Source of the DNA: Mobula hypostoma
Lineage: Eukaryota
NCBI RefSeq assembly: GCF_963921235.1
Contig: NC_086097.1
Coordinates: forward strand, 153,390,001 to 153,454,000
Reading direction: 5' to 3'
DNA: 64,000 bases
Position numbers and translations under genes: made by a program
The notes under the pieces: generated by a model
What the model was told of the DNA's origin: nothing
The model's database searches: none
What the model saw: only the letters and a program-made list of their open reading frames with translations
Shown: in pieces, positions 9,226 to 56,476 of the stretch
Layout of the letters: each line of letters opens with the position of its first letter
Position numbering within the stretch: the stretch's first letter is position 1

Positions 9226-9434
9226 TGTTTATGAAATTCAAAAAATGTCTGTTGCTGCAAGAAATCTGAAATAAAATCATAAAATACTCGGAACACTCAT
9301 TATGTCATGCAGCACTTGCAGGTGATGTGGCCACCAATTTTAACTCTGCTTCCCATTCCCATTTTGACACATTAGTCCATGGTCTCCTCTACTGCCACAA
9401 TGAGGCCACTCTCAGGTTGGAAGAATAACACATT

Positions 9435-10748: not shown

Positions 10749-11150
10749 ATAGAACATAGAACATAGAATAGTACAGCACAGTACAGGCCCTTCGGCCCAC
10801 AATGTTGTGCCGACCCTCAAACCCTGCCTCCCATATAAGCCCCCACCTTAGATTCCTCCATATACCTGTCTAGTAGTCTCTTAAACTTCACTGGTGTATC
10901 TGCCTCCACCACTGACTCAGGCAGTGCATTCCACGCACCAACCACTCTCTGAGTAAAAAACCTTCCTCTAATATCCCCCTTGAACTTCCCACCTGTTACC
11001 TTAAAGCCATGTCCCCTTGTATTGAGCAGTGGTACCCTGGGGCAGAGGTGCTGGCTATCCACTCTATCTATTCCTCTTGTTATCTTGTACACCTCTATCA
11101 TGTCTCCTCTCATCCTCCTTCTCTCCAAAGAGTAAAGCCCTAGCTCCCTT
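10749..11150 (-). mobile_element. CR1 3' fragment, young
   Basis: ORF ERRRMRGDMIEVYKI…TRGH…FFTQRVVGAWNALP; (GTTCTAT)n tail. Confidence 0.9.
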
Positions 11151-13152: not shown

Positions 13153-15265
13153 ACAATAAACTTGAACTTGAAAGATTCTTCGATGAAGATGTCACCACAG
13201 AGAGAAACAATATTCTTAGTCATTTAACACTTTAGAATCATTTGCTTTGCAACTACTCATGCAAGCAAATTGCAAAAATATGGTTTTTAATAAATTTGCA
13301 ATTCTCATTAGGGTGTTGCATATGCATTTTGCCATTGCTGATCAAGACAGCTGGCTTTCAGTGCAGTCGTCTAAAATATATGCAAAATAACAAATCACAC
13401 AGGGCTAGAGCAGAGCCTCAGCTCTCTTTGTTTTTAGCATAACTACATATTCATAAACAGCTCCAGATATTTCTAATTAATTTTGTATGGCATAAATAAT
13501 GCCTAATTGCAAGTCCTATTAAGTGGAAAAGTGACTGCCAGATAGCTTTGGATGAATTAAGAGTGAGAAGGGGCAAAATAAAATATAAAGATTATGACTC
13601 ACAATTAACCGAGTCCATTGATAGTGCATTAATTTCCCACACTATCTTTTAATTCAATCATTCTTTCAACATACAACCATGTTATTTGACAAAAAGTGCT
13701 GGAGATACTGTATTCAGCAGGTCAGGCAGCATTCTGTGGAGAGTGAAAGTGTGTTATCATTTCAAGTCAATGGCCCTTCATCAGAACTATGGTGTTGATG
13801 ACTGGCCTCATTGCCGGGTGAGTGATATTATGAGTGACTGCCACTGGTTAGAGCTGGCCTGTAGTACTCAAAGGGAAGTTGCTTTGTGATCCCGGCTACC
13901 CTTGAGTTGCCATGCAAATGAAGAAGGTACAAAGTACGAAGGAAATTCTGAATTCTTTGTTTAAGGGCAGCCAAGAAGAAAGCCAGTAGCAAAGTCATGA
14001 TAAACCAAAGATTTCATGTTCAGCCACTGAGCTTCATTCTTTCTGAATGTACAGGGAATTGAAGATTGTGCTTTTATATGTTTGTCTTTTTGTCCTTTCA
14101 TCACTCTCAACCACTCCGGTTTCTTTTCATTTCATATGATTTTCCCATGCAATATTTCACTTTCTATGCATGTTCATACATTGAATTGATTGTTCCAGTT
14201 AGTACATCATGGTTTGTCTCAATCAAGATTCTTTTGTCTGATTGATTGAAGAACCACTTCATTGATTTTGTAGCCCAAATACTCAGGTCACCTACAGAGT
14301 GCATTATACCGAAGATAATCTGTGAAAGCTGTGAGCTGCTATTCAAGAAACCACATTAGTTCTGTGGGCGCATGTAAGAGTAATGAATAGTGAGATCTAT
14401 TCATTTCTGGAGCTGCTTATAAAATGTAGCTGACAGTCTAACTTATGAGAGGCCTTTGTTGACTGCTAAACATAACTTTTATTGGGATATTTTCTGGCTC
14501 ATTTTGTGCCTTGGCTGAAGGAAGATTCTTGTTGCATCAGAAATCCTTTGTTCTTAGATTTTGTCAATTTTAATGCAGCTAGAACCTTGGCTGAAGAGAG
14601 AAACTTGGGTTGCTTAAAATATGTTTTTTTCCCTCAAAAATCCCTGAGAGAAATAAGTTGTTTTAAGTAAAGACCTTAAACCCACTGCCAGTAAAGTAAG
14701 CAATTAACTGCATGAACTTCCATTGCTCATAACTGACCACTCACATTTATTTACATTTATTGATGGATCTTGCAGGGCACTAAGTCATTAGGATAATGTG
14801 AAATGGTCAGGGTTTTGATATGGATGGCATCAATTAATTTCTGCCATCTGCCATCATGTTGTAAACAATGCATTTCTCTGTCACATGCTAAAAGGATTTC
14901 AAAAGTGCTAATGAAACGTTGTTTCCCTGATATTAAGATAAGGGTAAGTAAAGGAATTTAATTCTAATGATGTTCAGTGTGAAAATGGCTCCAAACATTG
15001 GTTAGACCATATTTGGAGTGCAGTTATTTGGGCCATCGTTCATTTGGGACAACTCTTAAAGAACAAAAATTAATTGAGAAAATAGCTGTGGTTCCCTTTG
15101 TTTAATTGGGACAGAAGACTGTTGCTGAACAGATTCAGTTAGCACCAGTCACGTATACTTGTGTAGATCTACAATATGCTTAGAAAGAACATTTTTTTAA
15201 TAGAAACATACATCAAAGTTGCTGGTGAACGCAGCAGGCCAAGCAGCATCTATAGGAAGAGGCGC

Positions 15266-15301
15266 AGTCGACGTTTCAGGCCGAGACCCTTCGTCAGGAC
15301 T
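15266..15301 (-). ncRNA. Minimal hammerhead ribozyme motif (PLE-associated)
   Basis: AGUC-CUGACGA-AGG(GUCUCGG)CCU-GAAA-C-GUC-GACU: intact core, stem I AGUC/GACU, stem II, and palindromic ACGU in place of helix III. Confidence 0.8.
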
Positions 15302-15595
15302 AACTGAAGGAAGAGTGAGTAAGGGATTTGAAAGCTGGAGGGGGAGGGGGAGATGCAAAATGATAGGAGAAGACAGGAGGGGTAGGGATAGAGCCGAGAG
15401 CTGGACAGGTGATAGGCAAAAGGGGATACGAGAGGATCATGGGACAGGAGGCCTAGGGAGAAAGACGGGGGGGGGGGTGACCCAGAGGATGGGCAGGAGG
15501 TATATTCAGAGGGACAGAGGGAGAAAAAGGAGAGTGAGAGAAAGAATGTGTGCATAAAAATGAGTAACAGCTGGGGTACGAGGGGGAGGTGGGGC

Positions 15596-17446
15596 CTAGC
15601 GGAAGTTAGAGAAGTCAATGTTCATGCCATCAGGTTGGAGGCTACCCAGACGGAATATAAGGTGTTGTTCCTCCAACCTGAGTGTGGCTTCATCTTTACA
15701 GTAGAGGAGGCCGTGGATAGACATGTCAGAATGGGAATGGGATGTGGAATTAAAATGTGTGGCCACTGGGAGATCCTGCTTTCTCTGGCGGACAGAGCGT
15801 AGATGTTCAGCAAAGCGGTCTCCCAGTCTGCGTCGGGTCTCACCAATATATAAAAGGCCACATCGGGAGCACCGGACGCAGTATATCACCCCAGTCGACT
15901 CACAGGTGAAGTGATGCCTCACCTGGAAGGACTGTTTGGGGCCCTGAATGGTGGTAAGGGAGGAAGTGTAAGGGCATGTGTAGCACTTGTTCCGCTTACA
16001 CGGATAAGTGCCAGGAGGGAGATCAGTGGGGAGGGATGGGGGGGACGAATGGACAAGGGAGTTGTGTAGGGAGCGATCCCTGCGGAATGCAGAGAGAGGG
16101 GGGGAGGGAAAGATGTGCTTAGTGGTGGGATCCCGTTGGAGGTGGCGGAAGTTACGGAGAATAATATGTTGGACCCGGAGGCTGGTGGGGTGGTAGGTGA
16201 GGACCAGGGGAACCCTATTCCTAGTGGGGTGGTGGGAGGATGGAGTGAGAGCAGATGTACGTGAAATGGAGGAGATGCGTTTAAGAGCAGAGTTGATAGT
16301 GGAGGAAGGGAAGCCCCTTTCTTTAAAAAATGAAGACATCTCCCTCGTCCTAGAATGAAAAGCCTCATCCTGAGAGCAGATGCGGCGGAGACGGAGGAAT
16401 TGCGAGAAGGGGATGGCGTTTTTGCAAGAGACAGGGTGAGAAGAGGAATAGTCCAGATAGCTGTGAGAGTCAGTAGGCTTATAGTAGATATCAGTGGATA
16501 AGCTGTCTCCAGAGACAGAGACAGAAAGATCTAGAAAGGGGAGGGAGGTGTCGGAAATAGACCAGGTAAACTTGAGGGCAGGCTGAAAGTTGGAGGCAAA
16601 GTTAATAAAGTCAACGAGTTCTGCATGCGTGCAGGAAGCAGCGCCAATGCAGTCGTCGATATAGCGAAGGAAAAGTGGGGGACAGATACCAGAATAGGCA
16701 CGGAACATAGATTGTTCCACAAACCCAACAAAAAGGCAGGCATAGCTAGGACCCATACGGGTGCCCATAGCTACACCTTTAGTTTGGAGGAAATGGGAGG
16801 AGCAAAAGGAGAAATTATTAAGAGTAAGGACTAATTCCGCTAGACGGAGCAGAGTGGTGGTAGAGGGGAACTGATTAGGTCTGGAATCCAAAAAGAAGCG
16901 TAGAGCTTTGAGACCTTCCTGATGGGGGATGGAAGTATATAAGGACTGGACATCCATGGTGAAAATAAAGCGGTGGGGGCCAGGGAACTTAAAATCATCG
17001 AAAAGTTTAAGAGCGTGAGAAGTGTCACGAACATAGGTCGGAAGGGATTGAACAAGGGGTGATAAAACAGTGTCGAGGTATGCAGAAACGAGTTCGGTGG
17101 GGCAGGAGCAAGCTGAGACAATAGGTCGGCCAGGACAGGCAGGTTTGTGGATCTTGGGTAGGAGGTAGAAACGGGAAGTGCGGGGTGTGGGAACTATAAG
17201 GTTGGTAGCAGTGGATGGGAGATCCCCTGAGCGGATAAAGTCGTTGATAGTGTGGGAGACAATGGCCTGGTGCTCCTTGGTGGGGTCACAATCGAGGGGT
17301 AAATAAGAGGAGGTATCCGCGAGTTGTCGCTGTGCCTCGGCAAGGTAGAGGTCAGTACGCCAGACTACAACAGCACCCCCTTTATCAGCGGGTTTAATAA
17401 TAAGGTTAGGATTAGTGCGGAGGGAGTGGAGAGCAGAGCGTTCCGA
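15596..17446 (-). CDS. PLE reverse transcriptase–GIY-YIG endonuclease, partial (616 sense codons, no start codon)
   Basis: Manual translation extends the 453-aa track ORF 163 codons upstream with no stop. Motifs: IKPADKGG, LPKIHK…GRPIVS, MDVQSLYTSIP, GVAMG, RYIDD, FLDL, VIYCVRCSRCGLLYIGET…RFAEH. Confidence 0.92.
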   Translation of the reverse strand, partial: SERSALHSLRTNPNLIIKPADKGGAVVVWRTDLYLAEAQRQLADTSSYLPLDCDPTKEHQAIVSHTINDFIRSGDLPSTATNLIVPTPRTSRFYLLPKIHKPACPGRPIVSACSCPTELVSAYLDTVLSPLVQSLPTYVRDTSHALKLFDDFKFPGPHRFIFTMDVQSLYTSIPHQEGLKALRFFLDSRPNQFPSTTTLLRLAELVLTLNNFSFCSSHFLQTKGVAMGTRMGPSYACLFVGFVEQSMFRAYSGICPPLFLRYIDDCIGAASCTHAELVDFINFASNFQPALKFTWSISDTSLPFLDLSVSVSGDSLSTDIYYKPTDSHSYLDYSSSHPVSCKNAIPFSQFLRLRRICSQDEAFHSRTREMSSFFKERGFPSSTINSALKRISSISRTSALTPSSHHPTRNRVPLVLTYHPTSLRVQHIILRNFRHLQRDPTTKHIFPSPPLSAFRRDRSLHNSLVHSSPPSLPTDLPPGTYPCKRNKCYTCPYTSSLTTIQGPKQSFQVRHHFTCESTGVIYCVRCSRCGLLYIGETRRRLGDRFAEHLRSVRQRKQDLPVATHFNSTSHSHSDMSIHGLLYCKDEATLRLEEQHLIFRLGSLQPDGMNIDFSNFR

Positions 17447-21690: not shown

Positions 21691-23850
21691 CACTTTTCTT
21701 TAAAGACCACTGTACTGAGCCAAGTAAGGCTAGCTGAAACATCATATTTTCACAAAAGAAGTGAAAATCCAGAGGGATTGCATTCCCCCAGTTTTCAGTC
21801 ATATACTTATGAAGTTATGAGTTAAAATTGGATTTTACATGAGAATGTTCCTCACGTTGCAAGTGGTACTTTGATTTAATAAGAATATGTTTTATAACAA
21901 GAAATGATAGATGCAAGTCAAAAACCTCTTGATCAGTTATGAACTCTCAAGGCGAAAGTATGAATAGGAAGCTATCTCTGAATGAATTAGGAGCAGGAAA
22001 TTCAAAAGGGTGTCTCACATCTGAGCTATTCAGCCCTCTTTGCGAGGAGCACCTCAACGTGGAGCACAAATAAAATACAACAAGTCACTCAAAGAACTCT
22101 TTAGCAAATGAAATCATCTTATGGACAGAAGTAGATTTATATCAAAAATATTGATTGAAGACAAAATTGAGCTGATGATATGTATATGCTAATTATACAA
22201 GGATATAATTATACAATACAATGGAATCTGCATAGATCAGGCTTTAAATTGATCCTACATGTTGAAAGGTGCCATGGCCAAAGTCCAAGACATTCATTTT
22301 GCTCACAGAAGCCATTTTGTGGAAAAAAGCCCGCAGGCTCAGCTATAAATCTTGCTGTTCTAGTTAATGAGCTTTTGGGCATTGTGATCTCCATTTTTTA
22401 GTCACGAGTAATTGCTGACATTTTCAGGTAGAGATATACATTTTATGTAATCAATACTGTGAGATTTGGTGAACATATTTCTGTGATTAAGTGAATTAAG
22501 GAGTCAGTTTTGGAATTAATAATGAATTGAAGAGAAAAATCTCATTATGAGGGATAATGTGGCATATTTTCAAAAAGGTATGTTAATTTATACGTGGTTA
22601 AATGTCAGTTCCAACAAAACTAAATGGAAAACAAATATAATGCTGAGAGCTTGTCAATCTGTTTATATAATGATTTTGTCTCACTTTCATATGAAGTGTG
22701 AAATTTGTAGAGTGATTTTTTTTATTAACTGAGAAGGCCAAAACATAAATAGAAAATTTCTAATTTACTTAAGGGACAGTGAGTGGTACAAAATCTTGAT
22801 TTGTCAAGAAAAATATGCTTTTTATTCTCAACAGGGCAGGCAGAATTTGTTGAAAGAGTAAAAGAGTTACCACTTCAGGTCAATAATCCTTCAGCAGAGC
22901 TGGAAATGTGAGAAATCGAGTGCATTTTAAATGGCAGGGAGAGGGAGGGATGCAGAAAAGGAAGGAAATGGCCATGATAGATAAGAGGTCAAAATTGTCC
23001 AGATGTCACAATGGTTTTCAAATCCATCTAATCAGGTGAAATCAATTCTGTTTAACCATAGCTGGAAGACAGTAAATAGAGAAGATAAATGTGACTAGTT
23101 AGGGAGAGACACAAAAAAAATCACAGCAATTATTTGTAGGATTCCATAGCTGTTGGAAATCAGAAGAAAGAAAACATTAGTTCAGTTGTGTGATAATGGT
23201 ACAAGCCTTATGTTGTGATGGATATTCATTTTCCAGGGCAAAAGAGGCTTATAGCTAAACTCAGCTTTCCAGCACAGCTGCATAATCTTTTAATACATAT
23301 TCTCCACTCAGCTTTTTTGTCCCAAGTTCTTAATGTAAGTTGCAAGTAGCAATCAGTTTGAAGTTGAAGGCACAGTTTTTCAAAGTAAAGTAACCAGGAG
23401 ACTTTTCTCAATTTGCCAAACACCAGACAACAAGGTTACAACACTTAGCACATCAAACACGGTTACAAGCTGGGATGCTTGTGTACTCAGGGGCTCACCC
23501 CTCACAGCATTAATTGTTGATGTATGGGACCTCTGTTTCCAGAAGCTTTTAAGACCATCTGTATTAGTTACTTTGTCCCAGCAAAGGTATCTGCAAAACA
23601 TCATAAGCAGACGATACCTTCGGAGAGAAAATAGCATAGATATCATCATAGCTTGGGGATTAAGGGCAACAACAAAGGAAACAGCAGAACGATGAGATTA
23701 CAGGAAAAACTAAACAGAGGACTTCCGGGTCATCAAGGGAATGGCGGCGTAAGGAAAAGGTCTCTCGACAAAAAAGAAGGTAAACTGCCCCAAAATCGAA
23801 TTTAGACAAATACTTAATATTGCATAACTATATTAATAAAAGGGGCAAGG

Positions 23851-24837
23851 ATGATGTCTAAGAACAAGAATAAAAAGTCCGCTCTGAAGGCTGATAAACA
23901 TAAAGAGATACAGCAAGGCGAAGGGCCTAGCTCTCCCACGGCAAGCCAGGACGGAGATAATGAGGGGGAATCGGTGACTTTGTCTTTGATTCTCGGAGAG
24001 ATTCGCGAGTTCCGACAAGATAACAGCAAACAGCTGGAAGATATTAAAGGAGAAATAGTAAAAACTAACTCGCGGATAGATGAAGCCGAAGCGAGGATTG
24101 TTGGAATTGAAGAGAAGCTACAAAATGCAGAGGAGGTGATAGCAGAAATGCTGAAGCTACAAGACCAACTCCAGTGGAAACTAATAGATCAAGAAGGTCG
24201 CTCGAGAAGGGAAAATGTGAGGATCTACGGAGTTCCCGAAGGAACCGAAGGTAAACCCAGATTGATGATTCCCTTCGTGGAGAAGCTGCTTAGAGAGAAC
24301 CTTGATATACCAGCCGCAAAAGACCTACAGGTAGAAAGGGCTCACCGTGCGTTGGCACCACAGCCTCCGGCAGGCACCCAGCCCAGATCGATTCTGATCA
24401 GATTTCTCAGTTACAGAACGAAGGAAGAGGTGCTTAAATGAGCATGGCAAAAGAAAGGTTTCATGTGGAACAACTGTAAAATCAGTTTAGACGACGACTA
24501 CGCACCAGGGATTCTTGCCAGACGGAAGGAATATACAGAAAAACGGACAGTCCTGAAGGAAAACAACATCAGATTCCAGGCCCTGTATCCAGCTCGGCTG
24601 AGAGTCTTTTACGACGAAGGGACAAAAACTTACGCTACGGTGGAGGAGGCAACGTCGGACCTGGCGGACCGGGGACTACCTATTAAAGTTATCACCCAAC
24701 CGGAGTCGCTACTGGAGAGGATTCGGCAGAAGTCGTGGCAGTTAGTGGGGCGAGGACGCTCCACTCGAACCAGAGTGTCAAACTACAAGGAAAAGCTGCA
24801 AATATTCAGACGCGAATGTACAGAGAATACAGATTAA
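23851..24837 (+). pseudogene. L1 ORF1p (coiled coil, RRM, CTD) with one in-frame stop
   Basis: EGRSRRENVRIYGVPEG, VERAHR and LYPARLRV motifs. ORFs 23851-24441 and 24463-24837 share a frame, with TGA at 24439-24441. Confidence 0.93.
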
Positions 24838-25199
24838 TTAAGAGAAATGACTGAAAAGAGTAAATCGGACTTAAAAGTAAAATGAAAACTGGTAACTGAA
24901 AATAATCTAGGCGGAATAACTTGAATGATAGCAATATGGTCGAGACATAAATAGGAGAAAATTCTCTATGATTATTCAAACTGCTGAGGGCCCTCTAACA
25001 CAGGGTGAAGATAGAGGTTATCCCTCTGAACTGAGGCGGGTCGGTGCTCAGGCCTCACTGTGGGAAGTCGGGGAAAATTTTCAAATGTTATACGTTCAGA
25101 AATGTCTAGGGTGTGGTTATATGTCTTGGTTTACTGTTGAGAAGGGATTGCTTACTGTTTGGTTAGAAAAGGAGAGTGCTTTTTCTCTACTAGATAAAA

Positions 25200-28100
25200 A
25201 TGCAAACTGAATTGGTAAAAATAATTTCCTATAATGTTAATGGGGTTTTGAATCCAATTAAAAGAAATAAGATTATGTCTAAATTGAAAAAAGAGAGGGC
25301 ACAAATAGCTTTCCTCCAGGAAACACATATGAGCCAATCTGAACATGGAAAATTAAAAAGAATGGGCTTTAAGCATGTATTTTATTCATCATATAAATTG
25401 AGTCACAAAAGAGGGGTAGCTACTTTAATATCAAGTACTCTTAATTATGAACATATTTCAGAGACTAGAGACAAAGAAGGACGGTTTGTAAAAATCACAG
25501 GAAGAATAGAAGGTACAGAAATAACATTGCTGAATGTTTATGCTCCTCCAGGTAGTGAATGGTCATTTTATAGACACATTTTTGACCTAATGGTCAGTTC
25601 TCGAGGGGTAGTAATTTGTGGAGGGGATTTTAATATTAGATTAAATCCTATATTAGATTCTTCAAGAATAGTTACTCAGAATAAACCTCTGACTCAGAAA
25701 GTGAATTCATTGATGGAGGAGTTGGGAATTATAGATGTCTGGAGGGAATTACACCCTACTAGTAAAGATTATACATATTACTCTTTCCCTCATTCAGCCT
25801 ATTCAAGGATAGACTATTTCTTTATCTTTAATACAGATAGACTCAGGATAAAAAACTGTAATATTGCAACAATTGATCTGTCGGATCATAGCCCAGTCTC
25901 TATGTCTCTAATCCTGGAAAGGAAAATGGGGAAAACACTATGGAGGCTAAACTCACATATACTTAATAACCCAAAAGTAATGCAGAGATTAAGGGGAGAA
26001 ATCAAAGAATATCTAGACCTTAATGACACGGGAGAAACATCACCAGTGATTTTATGGGATACATTGAAAGCTGTACTGAGAGGGAAAATTATTTCCATTA
26101 CTACTCACATGAAAAAAATCAATGCACAAAAATTAGCAGACCTTCAAGGAAAATTAAAACAACTTCAAGTTGGGGATAGCAACAAAAGTAATTCAAATCG
26201 AAAACAGGAAATTAGGAAATTGCAAAGTGAAATTGATGATATTTATACGTTGGAAACTCAAAGAAATTTTCTTTACCTGAGACAAAAGAATTATGAAGTA
26301 GGAGGTAAATCAGCTAGATTATTAGCATATAAATTACGAAAACAACAAGCAGACAATACAATTCATAAAATAAAGAATCCAAAGACAAAGCTTGTGGAGA
26401 GTACAATAGGGAAAATTCAAGAGAGTTTTGAAACGTATTATCGAGAGCTGTACTCCCAACCCCGGGCCCCCAATGAGCCCTATATAGACAGTGTATTGAA
26501 TTTTTTAGATCTACCTAAACTTACAGATTTACAAAATGAAAGTTTATTAGAACCAGTAACTGTCAAAGAACTGAACGTGGCCATCTCTAGGTTAAAGGCT
26601 GGAAAGTCCCCGGGTTCTGATGGGTTTACCTCAGAGTGGTACAAGTCCCTGAAGACACAGTTAGCCCCATTACTACTTGACACCTTTAATTGGATCTTGC
26701 AGAGAGGAGAAACTCCACCTTCCTGGAGAGAAGCGATTATTTCAGTTATTCCTAAAGAGGGTAAAGATAAACTAGAATGTGGCAATTATCGGCCAATTAG
26801 TGTTCTTAATTTAGAGTACAAACTATTTACATCTATATTAACGCGCAGATTGGAAAAGCTTTTACCTGGCCTAATCCATTTAGACCAGACTGGATTTATT
26901 CAACAAAGACAAACACAGGACAACATAAGGAGAACTCTGCACATATTAGAACAGGTTAATAAGAACGAGACAGAGACAATGGTAGTAGGATTGGACGCTG
27001 AGAAAGATTTTGATTCGGTTAGTTGGGCATTCCTATACAGAGTGTTAGGAAGATTCGGCTTTCAAGAAAGGTTTATTAAAGTAATTCAGACTCTGTATGA
27101 CAGCCCAACAGCCCGAATTAAGATAAATGGGGACCTCTCTGACTCCTTCATTTTAGAGAGAGGCACTAGACAGGGATGCCCAATTTCTCCTCTCCTTTTT
27201 GCGCTATATATTGGACCACTTGCCCAACTAATAAGACAGAGCGAAATCGTAAAAGGTATCAAGGTGGCAGGGATTGAACAGAAAGTGGCGTTATTCGCAG
27301 ATGATGTTTTGGTCTATCTGAGTGAACCAGAAAAATCATTTATAGGATTGTTTACTTGTTGGATGACTTTGGGAAAATATCAGGTTATAAAATAAATGTA
27401 AAGAAAATGCAGGTTATGTCCCTAAATTATACACCATCCAAAAAATTGCAGGATACATACGATCTTAAGTGGGAAGCTAAATCATTAAAATATTTAGGAA
27501 TAACCCCGCCGAAGGATCTTTCAACACTGTCACAGGTAAATTATGGGCCATTAATCTCAGAGATAAAAGCAGATATGCATAGATGGAATCTTATCCCCTT
27601 TTTAAGTTTAAATTCAATGATAAATACTATAAAAATGAATATTCTTCCTCGGTTATTATATCTTTTCCATACTTTACCAGTGGAGGTGGATGATAATCAA
27701 TTCAGGGAATGGGACAAATGGATTTCCCGCTTCATTTGGCAAGGAAGGAAACCTAGAATTCGATATAACACCTTACAGTTAGGGAAGGAAAGAGGAGGTA
27801 TGGTTCTTCCTTGCCTGAGAAATTATTTTTATGCCTCACAGATAACCCCTCTGTTATATTGGTGTAATAGGGAATATAAGGCTAGATGGAAGGAAATAGA
27901 ATTTGGATTAGTTGACAGTTTTCCTCTTCAGGCCTCAATAGCTGACAAAGGATTGATGGGCCAGTTGGAAAAATTTAATAATGCTTGGATAAATCTTACA
28001 TTAAAAGTATGGCAGAAGGTGGTTAATTCATGTGGAATTAATAACATGCTAAAACTCTTTAGATGGTGTGCATATGATACCGAATTCCTTCCCAACAGAG

Positions 28101-28986
28101 GAGATAAAAGATTTGAGCTATGGATAAAGAAAGGTCTTACAACCTACCTCTCATTTATAGATAAAAGAGTATTACAAAGTTTCCAAATCCTGCAGGACAA
28201 ACATGGCCTAGAACATAATGACTTTTTTAGGTACCTTCAAATACGAAACTATGTTAACCAGAGTTGTAGATATACAGACCTATCAACAGTAGAATTAGAA
28301 TTTTTCAAGATTCTGAATTCGGCTTGCAGTTCAATACCTAGTAAATCAGTTTCTCGCCTATATAATGCACTCTCCCTTGCTAAAAATGTAAATACACTGT
28401 ATATTAAAGAGAAGTGGGAGAAAGAAGCGGGGTTGGTACTTTCAGAGGAGGCTTGGGGGAAAATCTGCAGCTTTCAATGGTCCTCGACTAATTCTTTGAC
28501 TTGGAGAGAACATTGTTGGAAAAACATTATAAGATACTTCAAGACCCCATATCAGGAAAAATATAAAGATACAAATGTGATGTGTTGGAGAAGGTGCGGC
28601 TCCAAGGAGGCAAATCATTTTCATATTTTCTGGGGTTGCCCTAAATTAAGTCTATTTTGGGAAGGTATTCATAGAACATTAGTTAAGGTACTTAGGTCCC
28701 AGATACCTCTGAACTTTGAGACGCTCTATTTGTGGCATGTATTGTTCCTTGAACAGAAGGAAGATATAAAGTTGCTGCAGGCCCTCTTAGCGGCAAGTAA
28801 GAAATCAATCACTAGAAAATGGCTAAATCCAATACCACCTACATTAAAGATTGGTACGAAATTATCTTGGAAATATTTAAAATGGAAAAGTTGACCTACT
28901 CCCTGAGAACTCAAAAAGAAACATTTTATCAAATCTGGAATAAATGGATTGAATATATAACCCCAATGCGAGCAGACTTTAGATGA
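25200..28986 (+). pseudogene. L1 ORF2p (APE, RT, CCHC knuckle) with two single-base frameshifts
   Basis: SYNVNG, LQETH, GGDFN, SRIDY, SDH, KSPGSDG, GTRQGCPISP, FADD, CWRRC…HIFWGC. Frameshifts at ~27355 and ~28846. Confidence 0.95.
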
Positions 28987-30000
28987 CTCTCCTAATGATT
29001 TATATTGCTCTTCTCATCAACACAGTAATATTGCTAACGTAAGCACCCCTAGTCTAAATGTTTGTTGTTTTTTTTTGGAAAACAGAGAATTAACACAAGT
29101 AAAGGGAAAGATTTGGGAAAGGGATAAAAAAAATGAAAAAATTAAGTAAATAAGTACATAGGGATTGGATAATTATGTCTGCGGGCAGGAACAAGCACGA
29201 ACAAATTGGGATATAAACACCTACAATGGTTGGTATATAGGCTTGTATGCAACCTTTTGGACCAGTGGAAATGGTCCAGAAGGGTTGTATGGAAACTATT
29301 ATTACCATTTTTCTTAACAACTAATTTCATTACTTAGCCTAATAGGTTAGATTTACCACAGTACATAATTATCTATTTAAATGTTTATTTTGCTTTTATA
29401 TCATCTCAATGTGTACTTAAGAATGTATAAATAATTGTAGTTTTATACATATAAAAAAATGGAAAAGGTTATATGTGTGAAAAAAGTACATGATAATTGT
29501 GAACTCCTTATCCAAATAAAAATAAAATTTAAAAAAAAAAGAGATTACAGGAAAAACAACTGGAATTAATCCTCAACCTTTGGTTTATGCGATGGACTAC
29601 TCATTCGTCTGCAACTTGTTGGCATATTCTTCTAGTTCATAAGAATTGTACCTGTCTTTGTAAATCCTTTGTAGTTTCTAAATCTTGTAACTCAGTGTAA
29701 AATGTGCATTAAGAATTATTTGTATGCAGTATATTTAAATGTGTATCATTAAATATAAAATAACTGTATTTGAACTACTTCATGAGCTGGAAGTATTTCC
29801 TCCTTGGTAGAGAGGAGGACCCATCACTCAAGCAGTGTGTATTGGCAGCTAAGCCTTACCACAGAGGATAGACAGGAAAGAAAGTTAGTCTTTGAGGAGA
29901 AGGTCAATACAATGTAACCACTCTATCTATATCGGATAGGGCTTAAATCCCTCTTTAGAATTTAGTGCTTTGCAGTCAGGGGACGCAATACCACACAACC

Positions 30001-30740: not shown

Positions 30741-30990
30741 AAAACACAAGAGATCGTAAATATTGGAATCTGGAACTAAAGGATACTGCTGAAGGAATTC
30801 AGCAGAAAATGCAGGATCAGTGGAGTCAAATGGACAGTTGATGTTTCTGGTCAAGAACCTTCATTTGGACTGAAAGATAGAGGGAATTTAGCCGATACAA
30901 CAAAATGGAGGAAAAGGCTGGCACAAGAGCTGGAAAATGAAAGGTGAAGAGTGGTGATAGGCAGTTGGAGGAAGGAAGAGTGAGTGGAAA
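30741..30990 (-). mobile_element. Decayed PLE 3' end with hammerhead remnant
   Basis: Minus strand reads AGTCCAAATGAAGGTTCTTGACCAGAAACATCAACTG, with a purine-rich + strand flank. Confidence 0.6.
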
Positions 30991-32302
30991 TAGCTTCCTT
31001 TGTGTACATACACTTCACTTCTGCAAGTTATGGTTGAGCATGCATTTGTAATCCACTCAGGAAATGCAATCCTGACTATAACAACTGATTAGCTTGTCCA
31101 TCAAGTTTTATTTTTCATGTTCGAATAAAACCATTATCAACCTCAGCCTTACCAAATGTATATAAATACCATCTCTGAACATTTTTTCCAATAATTTTTA
31201 CCACTGGTTTAAGATCCATTACCCTGGAATATTCCTGCTGGACATCTTAAATAAGAGTCTGCACTTCTTGAATAAAGGTAGCATATTTGCTACTGGCCAG
31301 GAGAGAAAAATATTTCCATCAGGGGCCAAGCACTTTCCTTGCCTCCCTAAAAAATGGGATATCACTAAATGAGCTTTGGGAGATATATCAACAGTTATAC
31401 TTGCTAATTCATCCAATACGCCGTCCTTTTTAATTTTAACATGCTTTAAAGTGTCACTGTGCCAATGAAATCTTATCAACTTTAAGATTTATAAACCTTC
31501 AATAATATTTGATTTCCTTGTGGGGCACTGGCGGTTTTAAGGAAACTAGGTTTTAGGACTCTGAAAGCTCTTGTTGGCTACAAAAAGACTGCTTTCTACA
31601 GGCGACAGAAGATTGAAAGCTCAGTTACACCTCTCTGGAAGAAGAACATTGTTACTTTTTCTCAATTTCATTAATTTCTTTACCAATTATGATCAGAGTT
31701 ATTGTTATTACTATTATATCTCTCAACTTTTCTACAACCTGTACTCCAGAAAGAGCCAGTTCAAATATCTTCACTGCCAGAAGTTTTGTATGTCCCTTGC
31801 CTTAGTTGTCTTGCAATCCTCTTGGAAATATGTTTGCGTCAATTCTATATCTATATTTTATATATGACATTTTTTCATTCATTTTTGGGCTGTTGACATC
31901 TCTGTCAAAATCAGCCTTTCTTGTCCATCACAAATAGCCTTGAGAAAATGACAGTGAACAATGATTAATGTATAGCTATGTATTCCCAAGTCAGGATGAT
32001 AAATAACTTGGAGCATGTTTTAGAGCTTGCTGTCTTTTACTGTAGGTAAGTAACTGCAATATGTATTTTTGGTAAAGCAATCTATGGAGGTGGAGAAAGA
32101 GAATACTTAGGTACCAATCATGTTGTCAGCTTTGCTTTGCTTTGTTTGCTGATATAAAAGACTGTTGCTGGAACTATACTCACCCAGGCAAATGAAAAAT
32201 TCCATCACACTTCTGACTTAAACAATGAATGAGTTTTGAGGACTCAGGAAAATATTCACTTGCTACAGGATACCTATCTTTGAAATGCAAAATGCTATTG
32301 GT

Positions 32303-42035: not shown

Positions 42036-42200
42036 TTTCCTCATCTTTTTTTTCTCTAGTCCTGATGAATGGTCTCGACCTGAAACGTCATCTGTGCTCT
42101 TTTCCATAGATGCTGCCTGGACTGCTGAGTTCCTCCAGCATTTTGTGTGTGTTGCTTGGATTTCCAGCATCTGCAGATATTCTCTTGTTTGTGATTGGAT
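42036..42200 (+). mobile_element. Short PLE-derived element with hammerhead core
   Basis: AGTC-CTGATGA-ATGGTCTCGACCT-GAAAC-GTC at 42058-42089; the stem I 3' arm is mutated. Confidence 0.8.
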
Positions 42201-47773: not shown

Positions 47774-49667
47774 GACGTCCCAGAATCTGAGATTGTTTTA
47801 CTGCCACACATCTCACCTGCCAAGCAGAGTGTCCTCCCTGGTCAGGAAAGATGTTATCCCACAAGAGAGCAATATGTTACATATTTCAGTTAAGATGCAT
47901 TCAATGTTGAGTTGGAGTTCATAGCTATACAGAAAAGACTGTTGTGTATTCAATGTTTGAGTGATAATGTAAATATATTGTTTGATTAAATTCTTTGTTG
48001 TTTACATAATTTATTACAGATTGTATGTAAAATACATGAATGGCATACGTCATTACACCACCACAACTTTAGTGCATGCCTCACTTACAGTAAAAACAAA
48101 GTAGACCCACATCTTCCAGTTCCAGTGGGGTTTTTTTTGAATACTTTTTTGGAGTTACAAATTATAACAGCTCCCACCTTACTTTGATAAGAAATAGTCA
48201 ATTCATGCACACCACTTTTCAGGATGTATATTGTCTACATTTCTCTGACATTACATCTACTTATTGAAACCTATTGAAACCACTAACATTAGCAACACAC
48301 ACAAAATATTTGAGGAACTCAGCAAGCCAGGCAGCATGTATGGAAAACATTAGCAAACTAGTCTGATATTCTGTTCTGAAGACCTCCAACTTGAATGCAC
48401 CCAGGATGTAATCAGCCTTTTCAAGATCAAAATAGATAAAAAGTGAAGTCAAAATTCAACAGATTCCAGGAAACCCAAGCTCTTTTGTTTTCTGTCCAAA
48501 CTTCAGCTCCCTGATCGGTTTCAATACACTCCAGTATATATGCAGATCAAAGATTCCAATAACTTGGGAGTTCTTGTGTCGGATTCTCTAAAGGTTAACT
48601 TGCAAGTTTGGTGGTAAGGAAGGCAAATGCAATGTTAGCATTCATTTCAACAGGACTAGAAGATTTATTTATTTATTTCTTTAGAACACTTGGTTTTAAA
48701 CAATAAGATTTCACCTTATTCTTCATTAGCCAGGATATAGGCTCTTCATTAGCCAGGGGATCAAAGGGTATGGGGTGAAAGCAGGGGAGTGGGGATGACT
48801 GGAAGAATTGGATCAGCCCATGATTGAATGGCGACCACAACATGATTGAATGATTCTTCTGCTCCTATATCTTATCGTCTAATATATCTTTTCTAACAAG
48901 GTCTGTATTTTTGCTTAAAACAGTGTTGCTTTCAAATTTTACTTTAAAAAATTCTGGTTGGCGGTCAGTGACTAGTGGTGTTCCACAGGGGTCTATATTG
49001 GAACAGCTTCTGTTCAGATTATATGTCAGTTATTTGGATGAAGGAACTGATGATTTTGTGGCCAAGTTTGCAAATGATATGAAGATAGGTGGAGAGGCAG
49101 GTAGTATTGCGGAAGCAAGGAGTTTGCCGAAGGAATTAGACGGATTGAAATAATGGTCCAAGAAGTGACAGGTGGAATATAATAAGAAATTGTATGGTTA
49201 TGCACTTTGGCAGAAGGAATAAAGGCATAGATTATTTTCTAAATAGGGAGAAAATTCAAAAATCTGAGGTGCAAAGGGACTTAGGAGTTCTCGTGTAGGA
49301 TTCTCTAAAAGTTAACTTGCAGGATTGGTGGTAAGGAAGGCAAATGTAATGTTAGCATTCAATCCAAGAGGACTAGAATATTTATTTATTGTTTAGAACA
49401 CTTGGTTTTGAACAAGAGCAAATATGTGATGTTGAGGCTTTACAAGGCATTAGCTAAACCACATTTGGAGTAGTGTGAGCAATTTTGCGCTCCTTATCTA
49501 AGAAAAGATGTGCCAACATCAGAGAGACTCCAGAGGAGTTTTACAAGAATCATTGTAGGAATGAAAGGGTTAGTGTATGAGGTGCTGTTAATGGCTCTGG
49601 ACCTGTATTCCCTGGAGTTTAAAAGAATAAGGTGAGATCTTATTGAAACCTATTGAATATTGAAAGG

Positions 49668-52624
49668 GCCACTTTTCCACATAATTGTATAAGGGCTAAG
49701 AGAGTTGTAAAAGTGCACCTGAAGGCTTTGTGTGTCAATGCAAGGAGCATTCGTAACAAAGTGGATGAATTAAAAGTGCAGATTGTTATTAATGAATATG
49801 ATATAGTCGGGATCACAGAGACATGGCTCCAGGGTGACCAAGGATGGGAGCTCAACATTCAGGGATATTCAATATTCAGGAGGCATAGACCTGAAAGAAA
49901 AGGAGGTGGGGTGGTGTTGCTGGTTAGAGAGGAGATTAACGCAATAGAAAGGAAGAACATAAGCCGGGAGGATGTGGAATCAATATGGGTAGAGCTGCAT
50001 AACACTAAGGGGCAGAAAACGCTGGTGGGAGTTGTGTACAGGCCACCTAACAGTAGTAGTGAAGTTGGGGATGGTATTAAACAGGAAATTAGAAATGTGT
50101 GCAATAAAGGAACAGCAGTTATAATGGGTGACTTCAATCTACATGTAGACTGGGTGAACCAAATTGGTAAGGGTGCTGGGGAGGAGGATTTCTTGGAATG
50201 TATGCGGGATGGTATTTTGAACCAACATGTCGAGGAACCAACTAGAGAGCAGGCTATTCTAGGCTGGGTATTGAGCAATGAGGAAGGGTTAATTAGCGAT
50301 CTTGTCGTGAGAGGCCCCTTGGGTAAGAGTGACCATAATATGGTGGAATTCTTCATTAATATGGAGAGTGACATAGTTAATTCAGAAAGAAAGGTTCTGA
50401 ACTTAAAGAAGGGTAACTTTGAAGGTATGAGACGTGAATTAGCTAAGATAGACTGGCAAATGACACTTAAAGGGTTGACGGTGGATATGCAATGGCAAGC
50501 ATTTAAAGATCACATGGATGAACTACAACAATTGTTCATCCCAGTTTGGCAAAAGAATAAATCAAGGAAGGTAGTGCACCCGTGGCTGACAAGGGAAATT
50601 AGGGATAGTATCAATTCCAGAGAAGAAGCATACAAATTAGCCAGAAAAAGTGGCTCACTTGAGGACTGGGAGAAATTCAGAGTTCAGCAGGGGAGGACAA
50701 AGGGCTTAATTAGGAAGGGGAAAAAAGATTATGAGAGAAAACTGGCAGGGAACATAAAAACTGACTGTAAAAGCTTTTACAGATATGTGAAAAGAAAAAG
50801 ATTGGTTAAGACAAATGTAGTCCCCTACAGACAGAAACAGGTGAATTGATTATGGGGAGCAAGGACATGGCAGACCAACTGAATAATTACTTTGGTTCTG
50901 TCTTCACTAAGGAGGACATAAATAATCTTCCGGAAATAGTAGGGGACAGAGGGTCCAGTGAGATGGAGGAACTGAGGGAAATACATGTTAGTAGGGAAGT
51001 GGTGTTAGGTAAATTGAAGGGATTAAAGGCAGATAAATCCCCAGGGCCAGATGGTCTGCATCCCAGAGTACTTAAGGAAGTAGCCCAAGAAATAGTGGAT
51101 GCATTAGTGATAATTTTTCAAAACTCTTGAGATTCTGGACTAGTTCCTGAGGATTGGAGGGTGGCTAATGTAACCCCGCTTTTTAAAAAAGGAGGGAGAG
51201 AGAAACCGGGGAATTATAGACCGGTTAGCCTAACATCGGTGGTGGGGAAACTGCTAGAGTCAGTTATCAAAGATGTGATAACAGCACATTTGGAAAGCGG
51301 TGAAATCATTGGGCAAAGTCAGAATGGATTTGTGAAAGGAAAATCATGTCTGACGAATCTCATAGAATTTTTTGAGGATGTAACTAGTAGAGTAGATAGG
51401 GGAGAACCAGTGGATGTGGTATATTTGGATTTTCAAAAGGCTTTTGACAAGGTCCCACACAGGAGATTAGTGTGCAAACTTAAAGCACACAGTATTGGGG
51501 GTAAGGTATTGATGTGGATAGAGAATTGGTTGGCAGACAGGAAGCAAAGAGTGGGAATAAACGGGACCTTTTCAGAATGGCAGGCAGTGACTAGTGGGGT
51601 ACCGCAAGGCTCAGTGCTGGGACCCCAGTTGTTTACAATATATATTAATGACTTGGATGAGGGAATTAAATACAGCATCTCCAAGTTTGCGGATGACACG
51701 AAGCTGGGCGGCAGTGTTAGCTGTGAGGAGGATGCTAAGAGGATGCAGGGTGACTTGGATAAGTTAGGTGAGTGGGCAAATTCATGGCAGATGCAATTTA
51801 ATGTGGATAAATGTGAAGTTATCCACTTTGGTGGCAAAAATAGGAAAACAGATTATTATCTGAATGGTGGCCGATTAGGAAAAGGGGAGGTGCAATGAGA
51901 CCTGGGTGTCATTATACACCAGTCATTGAAAGTGGGCATGCAGGTACAGCAGGCGGTGAAAAAGGCGAATGGTATGCTGGCATTTATAGCAAGAGGATTC
52001 CAGTACAGGAGCAGGGAGGTACTACTGCAGTTGTACAAGGCCTTGGTGAGACCACACCAGGAGTATTGTGTGCAGTTTTGGTCCCCTAATCTGAGGAAAG
52101 ACATCCTTGCCATAGAGGGAGTACAAAGAAGGTTCACCAGATTGATTCCTGGGATGGCAGGACTTTCATATGATGAAAGACTGGATGAACTAGGCTTATA
52201 CTCGTTGGAATTTAGAAGATTGAGGAGGGATCTGATTGAAACGTATAAAATCCTAAAGGAATTGGACAGGCTCGATGCAGGAAGATTGTTCCCGATGTTG
52301 GGGAAGTCCAGAACGAGGGGTCACAGTTTGAGGATAAAGGGGAAGCCTTTTAGGACCGAGATTAGGAAAAACTTCTTCACACAGAGAGTGGTGAATCTGT
52401 GGAATTCTCTGCCACAGGAAAGAGTTGAGGCCAGTTCATTGGCTATATTTAAGAGGGAGTTTGATATGGCCCTTGTGGCTAAAGGGATCGGGGGTATGGA
52501 GGGAAGGCTGGTACAGGGTTCTGAGTTGGATGATCAGCCATGATCATACTGAATGGCGGTGCAGGCTCGAAGGGTCGATTGGCCTACTCCTGCACCTATT
52601 TTCTATGTTTCTATGTTTCTATGT
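49668..52624 (+). mobile_element. Young CR1 with essentially complete ORF2 (APE + RT) and three lesions
   Basis: NARSI, ITETW, GDFN, SDH, KSPGPDG, DFQKAFD, FADD. Frameshift at ~50820; stops at 51128-51130 and 51896-51898. (TTCTATGT)3 tail. Confidence 0.96.
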
Positions 52625-52950
52625 CAAGATAAACTGGATGTGGTGTCATAGTCCGGTCCGAAATCCATATTCCAGTTCACGGTCGGGTCCACGGACTCCG
52701 GACTCCGGGTCTTCCGGCTGTCCCTGGTTTCGGTTGGACTTAACCATAAGCACCTGATGCTCATCTTAGGGCTGGGAATATAAGTGGCCCGAGGATCAAG
52801 TATTGGTACAGGGTTGTCTTGTCAGTCTCCCCTTGGAGCAACCCATTGGTGGTAGGCTAGTGCAGTCATCGAGATATGAATTTGGCTGTTCTGTAGCCTG
52901 CTGAGATTACTGGCTGCCTCGAGTCTTGGAGCCACCCTGGACCTAGCTCC

Positions 52951-53210
52951 CTTCCTGTCCCTTGTCTCTGTCAGGTAAGCCAGCCTGTTTGCTGTTACCT
53001 TGTGGTTGGCTGTGTCCCTTTCTGTCTCTTGCCTCTGTTGGGTAAGCCAGGTTGTTTGCTGTTACCCTGTGGTTGGTTCTGTGTCTTCCTGTCCCTTGCC
53101 TCTGTTGGGTAAGCCAGGCTTTTTGCCATTACCCTGTGGTTGTGTCTGGCCCTTCCTGTCCCTTGCCACTGTCGGGTAAGCGAGGCTGTTTGCTGTGACC
53201 CTGCGGTTGG
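52951..53210 (+). repeat. 67-bp tandem repeat, four diverged copies, inside the LTR
   Basis: GGTAAG recurs at 52974, 53041, 53108 and 53175. Confidence 0.85.
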
Positions 53211-53303
53211 GTTTATTTCTCCCTGTCCTGCCCAGGAGTCCTGCATCCTGGGCAGGAATTGCCTCAAAGTACCCTTGACCTGTCATGTCCTCGTCTAGCC
53301 TCC

Positions 53304-53447
53304 AAGAACCCAAGCCTCATCACGTCTTCGCCTGGTCTCCAGGAACCCAAGCCTCATCACGTCTTCGCCTGGTCTCCAGGAACCCAAGCCTCATCACGTC
53401 TTCGCCTGGTCTCCAGGAACCCAAGCCTCATCACGTCTTCGCCTGGT
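53304..53447 (+). repeat. 37-bp near-perfect tandem repeat, ~3.9 copies, inside the LTR
   Basis: AGGAACCCAAGCCTCATCACGTCTTCGCCTGGTCTCC at 53304, 53341, 53378 and 53415. Confidence 0.95.
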
Positions 53448-54984
53448 TTTGGGATCCAAGCCTGAGTCAAGACCCAAGTTCTGGGTCCTTGTCGAGTCTC
53501 TGGCCCGGAGTTCACGCCCAGGCTCCTTGTTCCCACTCCCTTGTCCTGGTCCTGCTCCCCTAGCCTAGTCTGTGTTCCTGTCCCCACTCCTCATCTGCGT
53601 CCTGTCCCATCATTTAGTTTCGTCCGTTCCGGTTCCTAGTACTTCAGTGTCTGTGTCTTGCATTTGGGTCCATTCCCAACATCCTCCACTGTGACATGTG
53701 GAGAGGATGTTTCCTAATGTGGTGACTCTATTCCCAGAGAGTATAGCCTTGGAATAGAGGTATGTCCATTAAGAACAGATATGAGGGCAGTGAATCTGTG
53801 AATTCTTTGCCACTGATGGCTATGGAGGCCAAGTCATTGAGTATATTTGAGGCTGAGGTTGATTAGTTTTTGGTAAGTCAGAGCATCAATGGTTATGGAG
53901 AGAAGGCAGGAGAATGGGGTTGAGAGAGTTAGTAATTCATCTATGATGGAATGCGAAGGCAGTCTCGATGGCCTGAGTGACCTAATTCTGCTCCTATAGC
54001 TTTTGACAAGGGTTGACACATGTGAAATTATTGATTATAACTGAATAGAAACACCTTAGTTAGAATGAACAGTTAGTTTCTTCTTTGTCAAGCAGGCAAG
54101 GAAAGTTGATTAGAAAGGAAAAATTGGGATGGTGAATGGACTGGATGCCAACCTGTATAATGAATCCACAGATTCTGTGTTACATTTCTTCTCAAAAAAA
54201 ATAACAATTTTTTTATTATACTCTCAGTGGCCTCCTTTAATTTCTGCTTCAGTCCTCTTTGCAGATACACCAGATGTCCAAAACTCCTAAGTGAATAATA
54301 TGCACAGTAAGTCACTGTACTTCCTTCACTGCACATGTAAAGGCGTTTGTTCTGCCTATTTTACCCTCAGACATAGCACAGCCAGTGACACTGTTTGATT
54401 TTTGGGAATGTGATGAAGAAAATCACATTCACACAGCACCATAGCTAACTAATGTATTATAAGCATTAAGGTTGATGCTCTTTTTATTCCTTGCTACCAG
54501 GTGTAAGGAAGGAATTTTAATAGCCATTGAAGAAATCGTGGGTTTGGCTTGCCTATTTGCTTTATACATCATGCAATTCAACTTCCTAACTCAGACATTA
54601 TGGGTACTTTGAGATGATACTTTGAATCTCTGACCAAATCATTCCAATAAGTAGCAGAAACAACAATATTTCTTGCTCCTGATACAAAAGTAAGTTAAAA
54701 TAGCCCATCTGTGATATACAGAGAATTTACCCAACTTTGTTCTCTCTGTTGAGAAAAAAGAGTGTTTAAATGCATTATTATTTCTGAAACTGCTTGAACT
54801 AAACCATCAAACGTCATCCCACATATGAAGAGATGAATATACCAAAGTCAAGAATGGCCACCATAAAACCCTATGCTCCATTCGTAATGTAGTAAATATC
54901 ATGACCTTACTTTTGTGTAAATAATAAAATATATTTTACATTTTGTAACTAGGTAATCTTTCAAAATAGTTATCTTTTCTTTTT

Positions 54985-55563
54985 AGAGTATAGTCACAGA
55001 GCACTACAGCAGAGAAACAGGAACTTTGGTCCATCTAATCCACGCTGAATTGTTACTGTGTCAAGTCAAATTGACCCACACCTGGAACTTAGCCCTCCCA
55101 TCCACATACTAATAAACATTTCTCTTAAATGTTGAAATCAAACCCGTATCCACCGCTTCCACTGGCAGCTTGTTCCACACCTGGTCCACTCTCTGAGTGA
55201 AGAAGTTCCCCTTAAATATTTCATCTATCACTCTTAAACCATGACCCCTAGTTTTAATCTCACCTAACCTGAGTGGGATAAAGCTACTTGTATTTACCCT
55301 TTCTATAGCCATCATAATTTTATATACAGTACATCTAACTAATTTTCCTTCATTCTCCTAGGCTCCTGGGCATGAAGTACTAACCTATTCAATCTTTCCC
55401 TATAATTGAAATCCCCAAATCCCAGCAATGCCCTTGTAAGTCTTTTTTGTACTGTTTCAATCTTACTCCTATCTTTCCTGTAGCTAGATGACCAGAAAAG
55501 CAAATAATACAGTACTCCAAATTAGGCCTCACCAATATCTGATACTGTACAACTTCAACATAA
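54985..55563 (-). mobile_element. Old CR1 3' fragment
   Basis: LVRPNLEYC and TRGHGL…FFTQRV..VWNKLP remnants. Confidence 0.8.
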
Positions 55564-55578
55564 CTACAGATAAGTTGT

Positions 55579-55717
55579 GTTGAGGTCCTGATGAAGGGTC
55601 TCAGCCTGAAACGTCGACTGTACCTCTTCCTAGAGATGCTGCCTGGCCTGCTGCGTTCACCAGCAACTTTGATGTGTGTTGCTTGAATTTCCAGCAGCTG
55701 CAGAATTCCTGTTTGCG
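55579..55717 (+). mobile_element. 139-bp PLE-derived mini-element with 10-bp TSD
   Basis: GATAAGTTGT at 55569-55578 and 55718-55727; near-identical to the 3' terminus of the PLE at 15203-15300. Confidence 0.88.
55584..55619 (+). ncRNA. Minimal hammerhead ribozyme motif
   Basis: GGUC-CUGAUGA-AGG(GUCUCAG)CCU-GAAA-C-GUC-GACU. Confidence 0.78.
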
Positions 55718-56476
55718 GATAAGTTGTTCTTTTCTTCAAAAATCTTTGAAACAGATCCATTCAGCCCTATTTTATTTATCCCTTCCAGCAAGAATAAAGG
55801 TTCTCTCAAGCCTTTTGATAATTGTTGAATAATTCCTGTTATATTTCCAAATGAACCCCAGATTCTCCATCCTGACCAGTCTAACCTACCTGGAAATTGA
55901 AATCTTTTGAGGAAGTTGCAGGCATCGACTCTGCCATTACACTCAGCAATACCACTACAATCTCACTAACAGAGAAAGAGAAAAAAATATTGGCTTGCAA
56001 CAATACACACTTAATCAATAAGAGGCCATGTCCTGTCATGTTTGAGCTAACACTTGCAGCATTTCCCACTGACTAACAAAAAGCAGCAAGATAAAGCAAT
56101 AACGTTTGAACAGAATTCTCAATCTGACAAATGCAGGGCCACTTCTTAACTGTACTCTTATGACACTTGTTTTCCTGGAAAGGTCTATTGACCACAAAAG
56201 GCAAGGGCTCCCACTGTAATCAGGAATCACTTGTTTCAACAGCAGCACTACAACTTGCAGTTCTCTTTCCTGACAATATGTTTGATAGCAAATGTGCCTA
56301 AGAAGAATATGGTATCCTGTCTCAATGACTATTGTCCAGTTGCATTAACTGTACATCCATGGTGATGAAGTATGTTGAGAGATTGGTGATGAAACATATC
56401 AACCCTTGCCTGACAACAGACTTGCATCTGCTCCAATTTGCCTACCAGAGCAAAAGGTCCGCAATTGATGCCATCT

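Follow-up and report, generated by a model that had tools for sequence, protein, structure and literature searches.

The 139-bp sequence that carries a hammerhead core at one locus of Mobula hypostoma raises the question of whether it belongs to a mobile family of its own or is a fragment of a Penelope-like element (PLE). The original prediction was that of a ribozyme-defined, SINE-like unit mobilised in trans by a PLE protein. We analysed the locus within a stretch of 64,000 nucleotides (64 kb; the window, hereafter, is the whole of this stretch), and the following features were distinguished.

55569-55578, + strand: left copy of the target-site duplication (TSD), 10 bp, from the exact repeat and a chance test
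55579-55584, + strand: 5' junction filler, 6 bp, with no homology upstream of the nine other copies
55585-55619, + strand: minimal type I hammerhead motif, read from the sequence and by constrained folding; activity predicted only
55620-55683, + strand: PLE pseudo-LTR sequence to the inner 3' end, part of a 99-bp match of 91.9% identity
55684-55717, + strand: optional PLE "tail", 34 bp, ending at the outer 3' end of the family and common to the copies at 42059, 30003, 37657 and 30870
55718-55727, + strand: right copy of the TSD, from the exact repeat; contigs of the public runs X1 and X5 run from the flank into the unit
55118-55565, - strand: old CR1-like LINE fragment, adjoining the left TSD copy, outside the unit; probable template of the filler

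The insertion and its parts

The repeat GATAAGTTGT was found at 55569-55578 and 55718-55727, with no third site in the window when both strands were searched, and its two exact copies enclose 139 bp. Around a core of 133 nt with 0-10 nt of slack, such a repeat occurred at only 1 of 63,770 window positions, and the probability calculated from base composition with 11 offsets was about 1.9e-5. The TSD is therefore not a product of chance, and the predicted insertion of 139 bp with a 10-bp TSD is real. In addition, contigs continue from the right flank into the first 34 nt (X1) or 30 nt (X5) of the unit that they reach, so the insertion is common to a relative in which the flank is about 2% different. 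In X9, in which the flank is about 7% different, a minus-strand contig of 699 letters aligns to 55714-56354 and leaves 49 letters unaligned on the unit side. These letters are a hint, and only that, of a possible empty site in a more distant relative; an empty-site joint for this contig was not among the best 15 of 224 joints.

On the left side, the CR1-like fragment was identified by tblastn with the window ORF at 51899-52540, which matches 55544-55118 (E 3e-22), and its edge at 55545-55565 was set by eye. Since the left TSD copy lies outside the fragment, CR1 provides no independent test of the insertion. The target site is AT-rich, and would have been nicked with a stagger of 10 nt. Other repeats are present in the window. 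Two CR1-like RT copies (39-2011 and 50638-52621) lie in opposite orientation and are 95.3% identical over about 2 kb, and a region on the + strand (23818-28894) has ORFs of 207, 131, 733 and 522 aa that resemble, by eye, an L1-type ORF1 and an endonuclease-RT ORF2. The segments 28041-29539 and 2265-3763 are 94.6% identical, and tandem repeats were found at 52948-53212 (67 bp x 4, 83%) and 53300-53447 (37 bp x 4, 99%).

The unit consists of 133 bp of a PLE 3' end and, at its 5' side, 6 bp of filler-like sequence. Positions 55585-55683 match 15300-15202 (minus strand) of a PLE in the same window over 99 bp with 91.9% identity, the hammerhead included, and the predicted derivation from a PLE was thus confirmed. 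Its finer description as a hammerhead plus about 100 nt of PLE sequence stood with respect to the PLE match, but not to a separate hammerhead, which the 99-bp match already contains. Nor is the unit made only of a hammerhead and of sequence found in the PLE at 15203: that copy stops before the last 34 bp (55684-55717), which are matched by other window copies, and the first 6 bp do not belong to the family. A CTGATGA is indeed present at 55588, 9 nt from the start of the unit, but the element proper begins only 2-3 nt before it, as 55579-55584 is non-family sequence. The last 34 bp fit the known optional PLE tail of 30-40 bp, between two internal RT start sites. The unit is non-coding; when its translations were compared with 120 homologous proteins, no match rose above chance level (best E 0.019). 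An ORF start at the ATG of CUGAUGA was considered and rejected, this triplet being ACG in the PLE at 15300. It is most likely that the unit was inserted by the PLE RT/GIY-YIG protein.

The 6-bp filler is part of a 12/14 inverted match between 55573-55586 and 55552-55565, with a 7-nt loop; inverted matches this good were found at 50 of 63,920 window positions, many of them in simple repeats. The filler was probably templated from the flank, by what would have been a fold-back. Such filler commonly accompanies end-joining where the 5' side of a retrotransposon meets its target. Less convincingly, the six bases could derive from the tail end, damaged by one gap and one mismatch, as would be expected from a circular template. 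cDNA fold-back or twin priming onto 55602-55607 was ranked lower, because the primer end is mismatched and one of the letters on which the match depends is unique to the unit. The 5' junction also bears on the reading of the unit as the remnant of a longer PLE insertion, the body of which was lost by pseudo-LTR (pLTR) recombination or by deletion. TSD-less solo pLTRs of A. vaga have been ascribed to such events (PMC3846280). At this locus, however, perfect TSD copies border the unit directly on either side, the filler is tied to the flank, as expected at an insertion, and recombination would need an upstream pLTR itself starting at helix I of the hammerhead. We consider such an origin extremely unlikely.

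The PLE family and the ends of its copies

The PLE to which the unit is most similar has the following position.

15203-17446, - strand: 5'-truncated, tail-less, putatively Neptune-type PLE of the same subfamily, with RT, CX4CX2C linker and GIY-YIG

This copy has 616 stop-free codons, then a pyrimidine-rich 3' UTR of about 300 bp, with the hammerhead at 15300-15266. RT motifs were recognised in the 616-codon frame, together with CKRNKCYTC at residue 483 and YIG at residue 533, and comparison with Pfam gave RVT_1 (E 2e-5) and GIY-YIG (E 5e-4), both below the curated cut-offs. The CX4CX2C linker is a mark of Neptune that is common to Nematis (PMC8557442), and the element may be termed Neptune-type by this motif, with the same ambiguity. 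Among named proteins, those of Mobula hypostoma are the closest, with 93-94% identity over 60% of the query, followed by those of Hypanus and Chiloscyllium; 2,295 homologues had E<=1e-50 among the 8,000 candidates scored. A fragment of a GIY-YIG C-terminus was also found at 9327-9434 (+), with 72% amino-acid identity to the ORF at 15599-17446 and no hammerhead downstream.

A profile built from eight window copies gave 12 matches, which were reduced to 10 loci in the 64-kb window by dropping 9314-9249 (nhmmer, E 0.43) and merging 11254-11331 with 11166. The 5' ends of these loci, mostly read by eye, lie relative to 55585 at about +45, 0, about -3, -3, -10, -70 to -87, -125, -240, beyond -365 and about -2150; homology upstream was clearly above shuffles for 37657 and 10385-10748, and only marginally so for 30870 and 22900. 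There are two 3' ends, 34 bp apart and equivalent to 55683 and 55717, and the copies at 15203 and 48291 stop at the inner one, 34 bp early. TSD-like repeats are not limited to short copies (30742-30995, 22 nt, diverged), and the automatic TSD search gave nothing convincing at 15203, 13787, 37657, 22900 and 30003. Three of the loci have particular structures. The copy at 48291-48345 (minus), which has the +45 end, is about 55 bp long, with the inner 3' end, no hammerhead, and an 11-nt direct repeat overlapping its end. That at 42050-42193 is short and belongs to a different subfamily; its start lies about 10 nt upstream of helix I, and it keeps its tail and has a diverged direct repeat of about 25 nt. 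At 10385-11331, a PLE 3' end is split within the hammerhead core (after 10748) by a CR1-like insertion starting with (ATAGAAC)n; it resumes near 11164, and a second partial copy follows at 11254-11331.

Where the sequences overlap, identity of the unit to the ORF-bearing PLE is 92%, versus 57-79% to seven other copies, and these two sequences were grouped with a support of 0.999 in a tree of nine window copies, from which the 55-bp copy was left out. The short copies did not form a clade among the nine aligned sequences, and no column (0) united three short copies against two UTR-attached ones. Pol III A boxes (at <=2 mismatches) and B boxes (at <=1), sought with consensus sequences, were absent from the unit, and a tRNA search of the unit found none. 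The SINE-like character of the original prediction is not supported by these relationships, nor by the Pol III box search.

Ten copies with two 3' ends and with starts scattered from +45 to -2150 are best explained by 5' truncation. We therefore regard as probable that the unit is an extremely 5'-truncated insertion of a Neptune-type PLE, flanked by a TSD and retaining the minimal hammerhead. The original prediction held that randomly distributed 5' ends would speak against an independent unit, and the window copies are divided in this respect: the overall spread is of that kind, whereas four of the ten start within about 10 nt of helix I. Of the six ends within a span of 180 nt, four share a single bin of 15 nt (p about 0.008, post hoc, with a 12-bin correction), although copies with a hammerhead are more readily detected, and 13787, which is among these four, is old and has no clear TSD. 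This clustering counts against simple truncation, and a fixed RNA end, or an RT pause, may exist there.

The public contigs over 54900-56400 bear on both ends. Four runs gave 83,552 contig records (X1), followed by 56,060, 22,787 and 5,206 (X18), figures that count records and are not a copy number. The depth is concentrated on the unit, and the copy number of the family is very high. For X18, the records are contigs of which the RNA origin is only guessed, and they are uninformative on small RNAs. Loose ends behind 55710/55713 were present in 251 and 193 contigs of X1, 252 of X5 and 16 of X18; their next 7-10 letters are alike and then scatter, which identifies 55717 as a family-wide 3' end. 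Eight X18 contigs have loose ends behind 55683, the inner 3' end. At the other side, 804 and 237 X1 contigs have loose ends before 55585-55586, with a low agreement (0.36-0.37), which fits many 5' ends at this position; several UTR subfamilies, together with the filler of the unit, would look alike.

In each of the five copies with a UTR, a pyrimidine-rich tract (68-84% in 25 nt) and a YAG end exactly at the G equivalent to 55585. The tract or the YAG ends at this helix-I opening G at 15301, 37656, 30871, 22901 and 10742, and also at 42058 and 13788, and this 3'-splice-site-like sequence is common to subfamilies that are only 57-79% alike. In each of the four runs, the loose ends before 55585 have a consensus that terminates in CA. 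The unit could thus be a programmed product: having initiated on a PLE transcript, at the tail site of its 5' pseudo-LTR, the RT would run off a fixed RNA 5' end, either the start site or an end linked to a 3' splice site at helix I, leaving a regular "strong-stop"-like by-product of about 133-145 nt. The pile-up of 5' ends near helix I and the pyrimidine tract with its YAG agree with this mechanism, as do the intron of Drosophila virilis Penelope, whose end coincides with the 5' border of helix I (PMC4209133), and the 46-nt exon that precedes its 75-nt intron, most transcripts being spliced (PMC2377424). By inference from PMC11167929, such products would also be expected from internal initiation. 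However, the starts of the short copies differ by about 10 nt, and the lack of a common 5' leader among them speaks against their being plain copies of a single spliced mRNA; one short copy (42050-42059) keeps the AG and the tract. Moreover, the splice signal is putative, as the AG also belongs to helix I and pyrimidines are abundant along the whole UTR, and n is 4, including the old copy. For the unit itself this origin appears unlikely, and we propose only tentatively that the solo copies of about 135 nt are run-off cDNAs ending at a fixed RNA end at helix I. If this were true, the end of the PLE transcript in vivo could be mapped from the 5' ends of solo copies, of which there are many thousands, and these would provide a genomic read-out of pseudo-LTR formation and of the role of the hammerhead or intron.

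The hammerhead motif and the mechanism of insertion

All the letters of the hammerhead core are present in the unit (CUGANGA, GAAA and UH), with an extra A after A9. Helix I is formed by 55584-87/55616-19, CUGAUGA by 55588-94 and helix II by 55596-99/55604-07; the extra A is at 55595, and GAAAC-GUC (55608-15) includes helix III, a loopless ACGU palindrome. The original description of an intact minimal hammerhead is accurate for the core letters but less so for the rest of the motif: helix I has three Watson-Crick pairs and one G-U, helix III is loopless, pair 10.1-11.1 is G-U in the unit and in the PLE at 15300 (G-C in the copies at 30003 and 37657), and the hammerhead fold is predicted to lie 8.1 kcal/mol above the minimum (7.8 in the partner PLE copy). 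In a modelled dimer, the hammerhead fold had -10.9 versus -21.0, and overall folding was weak (z -1.62). No match was obtained with Rfam at gathering thresholds in the whole window; five sub-threshold matches around the unit (E 1.6-9.9), none of them a hammerhead, were taken as chance. No second hammerhead was found in cis at the unit. The extra base after A9 and the loopless palindromic helix III are described for the minimal hammerheads (min-HHRs) of animal PLEs, a description that the unit fits; most of these are single and "probably related to truncated PLEs", and a single minimal motif did not cleave, while dimers cleaved poorly (PMC4209133). In the PLE of another study, hammerhead cleavage needed protein and was dispensable for insertion (PMC11167929).

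The predicted cut (55615/55616) lies 31 nt from the 5' end of the element and 102 nt from its 3' end. It is internal, so neither element end is a cleavage end, and the unit is not ribozyme-defined. This counts against an independent SINE-like or retrozyme-like family, in which the hammerhead would process small RNAs, linear or circular, for mobilisation in trans, although several observations agree with such a family. The unit is solitary, with a TSD and a hammerhead core, and there is a loose resemblance between its filler and the tail end. PLE pseudo-LTRs have given rise to non-LTR retrozymes, which leave monomers as solo copies, one chondrichthyan being included (10.64898/2026.07.22.740005), and pLTR sequence alone can be mobilised in trans (PMC3846280). 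Short tandem hammerhead duplications with a 36-50-nt period occur in X5 and X9, with joints from 55620 back to 55585; as read from these sequences, they could provide two minimal hammerheads in cis, making dimer cleavage possible. On the other hand, known retrozymes mostly have canonical type I hammerheads in tandem repeats of 150-450 bp (PMC7229834), and no tandem array of hammerhead-bearing units was found at the locus or in the 64-kb window. A tail-to-helix-I joint was absent from the best 15 of 224 joints and from 12 of 69 insert rows, and the loose-end consensus after the tail does not lead into the start of the unit. Together with the absence of a clade of short copies among those aligned from the window, of Pol III boxes and of a tRNA, these results make an independent family very unlikely.

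The 5'-truncated insertion can be envisaged as follows. The PLE protein would bind an uncleaved PLE transcript, which would account for the hammerhead motif being whole in the DNA, and its GIY-YIG domain would nick an AT-rich site with a 10-nt stagger. The RT would start inside the RNA at the outer tail site (55717), copy 133 nt through the hammerhead and stop at helix I, perhaps helped by a local hairpin. The 3' end of the top strand would then fold back on the flank, gain six templated bases and join the cDNA over a 2-nt match. In the element studied by Frangieh (2024), the RT starts internally at two sites bounding a tail of 30-40 bp, unprocessed RNA is the main template, and the RNA must reach +172 although the RT starts at +111-118, in the one PLE tested in vitro (PMC11167929). 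That element is a lizard member of the Poseidon clade, of a different family from that of the unit. An optional PLE tail has also been described (PMC8557442), and PLEs with solo pLTRs, a tail of 31 bp and TSDs 8-10 bp long are on record (PMC3846280). The unit is probably a dead end, since it has one minimal hammerhead without a cis partner, no promoter that we could see, and no sequence downstream of the RT start, a sequence required by the PLE tested in vitro.

Significance and comparison with known systems

Several elements of this picture are already in print: single min-HHRs that come from truncated PLEs and are dispersed (PMC4209133), pseudo-LTRs that stand alone and have TSDs of 8-10 bp (PMC3846280), and retrozymes that originate from PLEs and occur also as solo monomers, one chondrichthyan included (10.64898/2026.07.22.740005). 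No shark or ray description of the PLE family of the unit was found in the literature searched, which was mostly outside subscription journals; it may be listed in the supplements to the retrozyme preprint and to PMC4209133. Pattern scans for the unit gave 0 loci in viral contigs, metagenome contigs and prokaryote genomes, and a sigma-70 and terminator scan was set aside as irrelevant to a vertebrate. On this reading, ordinary end fragments of PLEs number many thousands in the ray genome, and the unit is one of them, itself mostly ordinary. It is of use in repeat annotation, and its presence or absence might serve as a marker in related rays. It also extends to a Neptune-type family the two-site tail signature, for which the in vitro tests to date were on the lizard Poseidon element. 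A pile-up at helix I, if confirmed across the genome, would offer a sequence-only test of the unsolved later steps of PLE transposition and of the role of the minimal hammerhead.

SINEs are short, high-copy elements with a TSD and with a 3' end common to an autonomous partner, features in which the unit is alike; it differs from them in lacking a tRNA-, 5S- or 7SL-like head and Pol III boxes, and in showing no lineage of its own among the nine aligned window copies. With the metazoan PLE min-HHRs (PMC4209133), it shares the type I topology, the short helix I and a mostly single and dispersed occurrence. In contrast, its helix II has 4 bp rather than the 7-8 of Schistosoma, pair 10.1-11.1 is G-U in its subfamily, and its helix I is weakened by the filler. 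Like the non-LTR retrozymes (PMC7229834; 10.64898/2026.07.22.740005), the unit is small and non-coding, with a type I hammerhead, kinship to PLE pseudo-LTRs and a TSD of more than 4 bp; however, those are tandem hammerhead-bearing units with self-cleaved monomer or circular RNA, whereas no array of the unit was found in the window. For the EN+ PLEs, we found no description of 5' ends clustering at helix I in the available text of PMC8557442, PMC11167929 and PMC3846280. The likeness to EN+ Neptune elements, as described in the same sources, includes subfamily sequence with RT, CX4CX2C and GIY-YIG, a hammerhead near the 3' end, an optional tail, here of 34 bp, a TSD of about 10 bp and heavy 5' truncation. 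The unit departs from these elements in keeping only the last 133 bp, and in the 5' ends, which may cluster at helix I.
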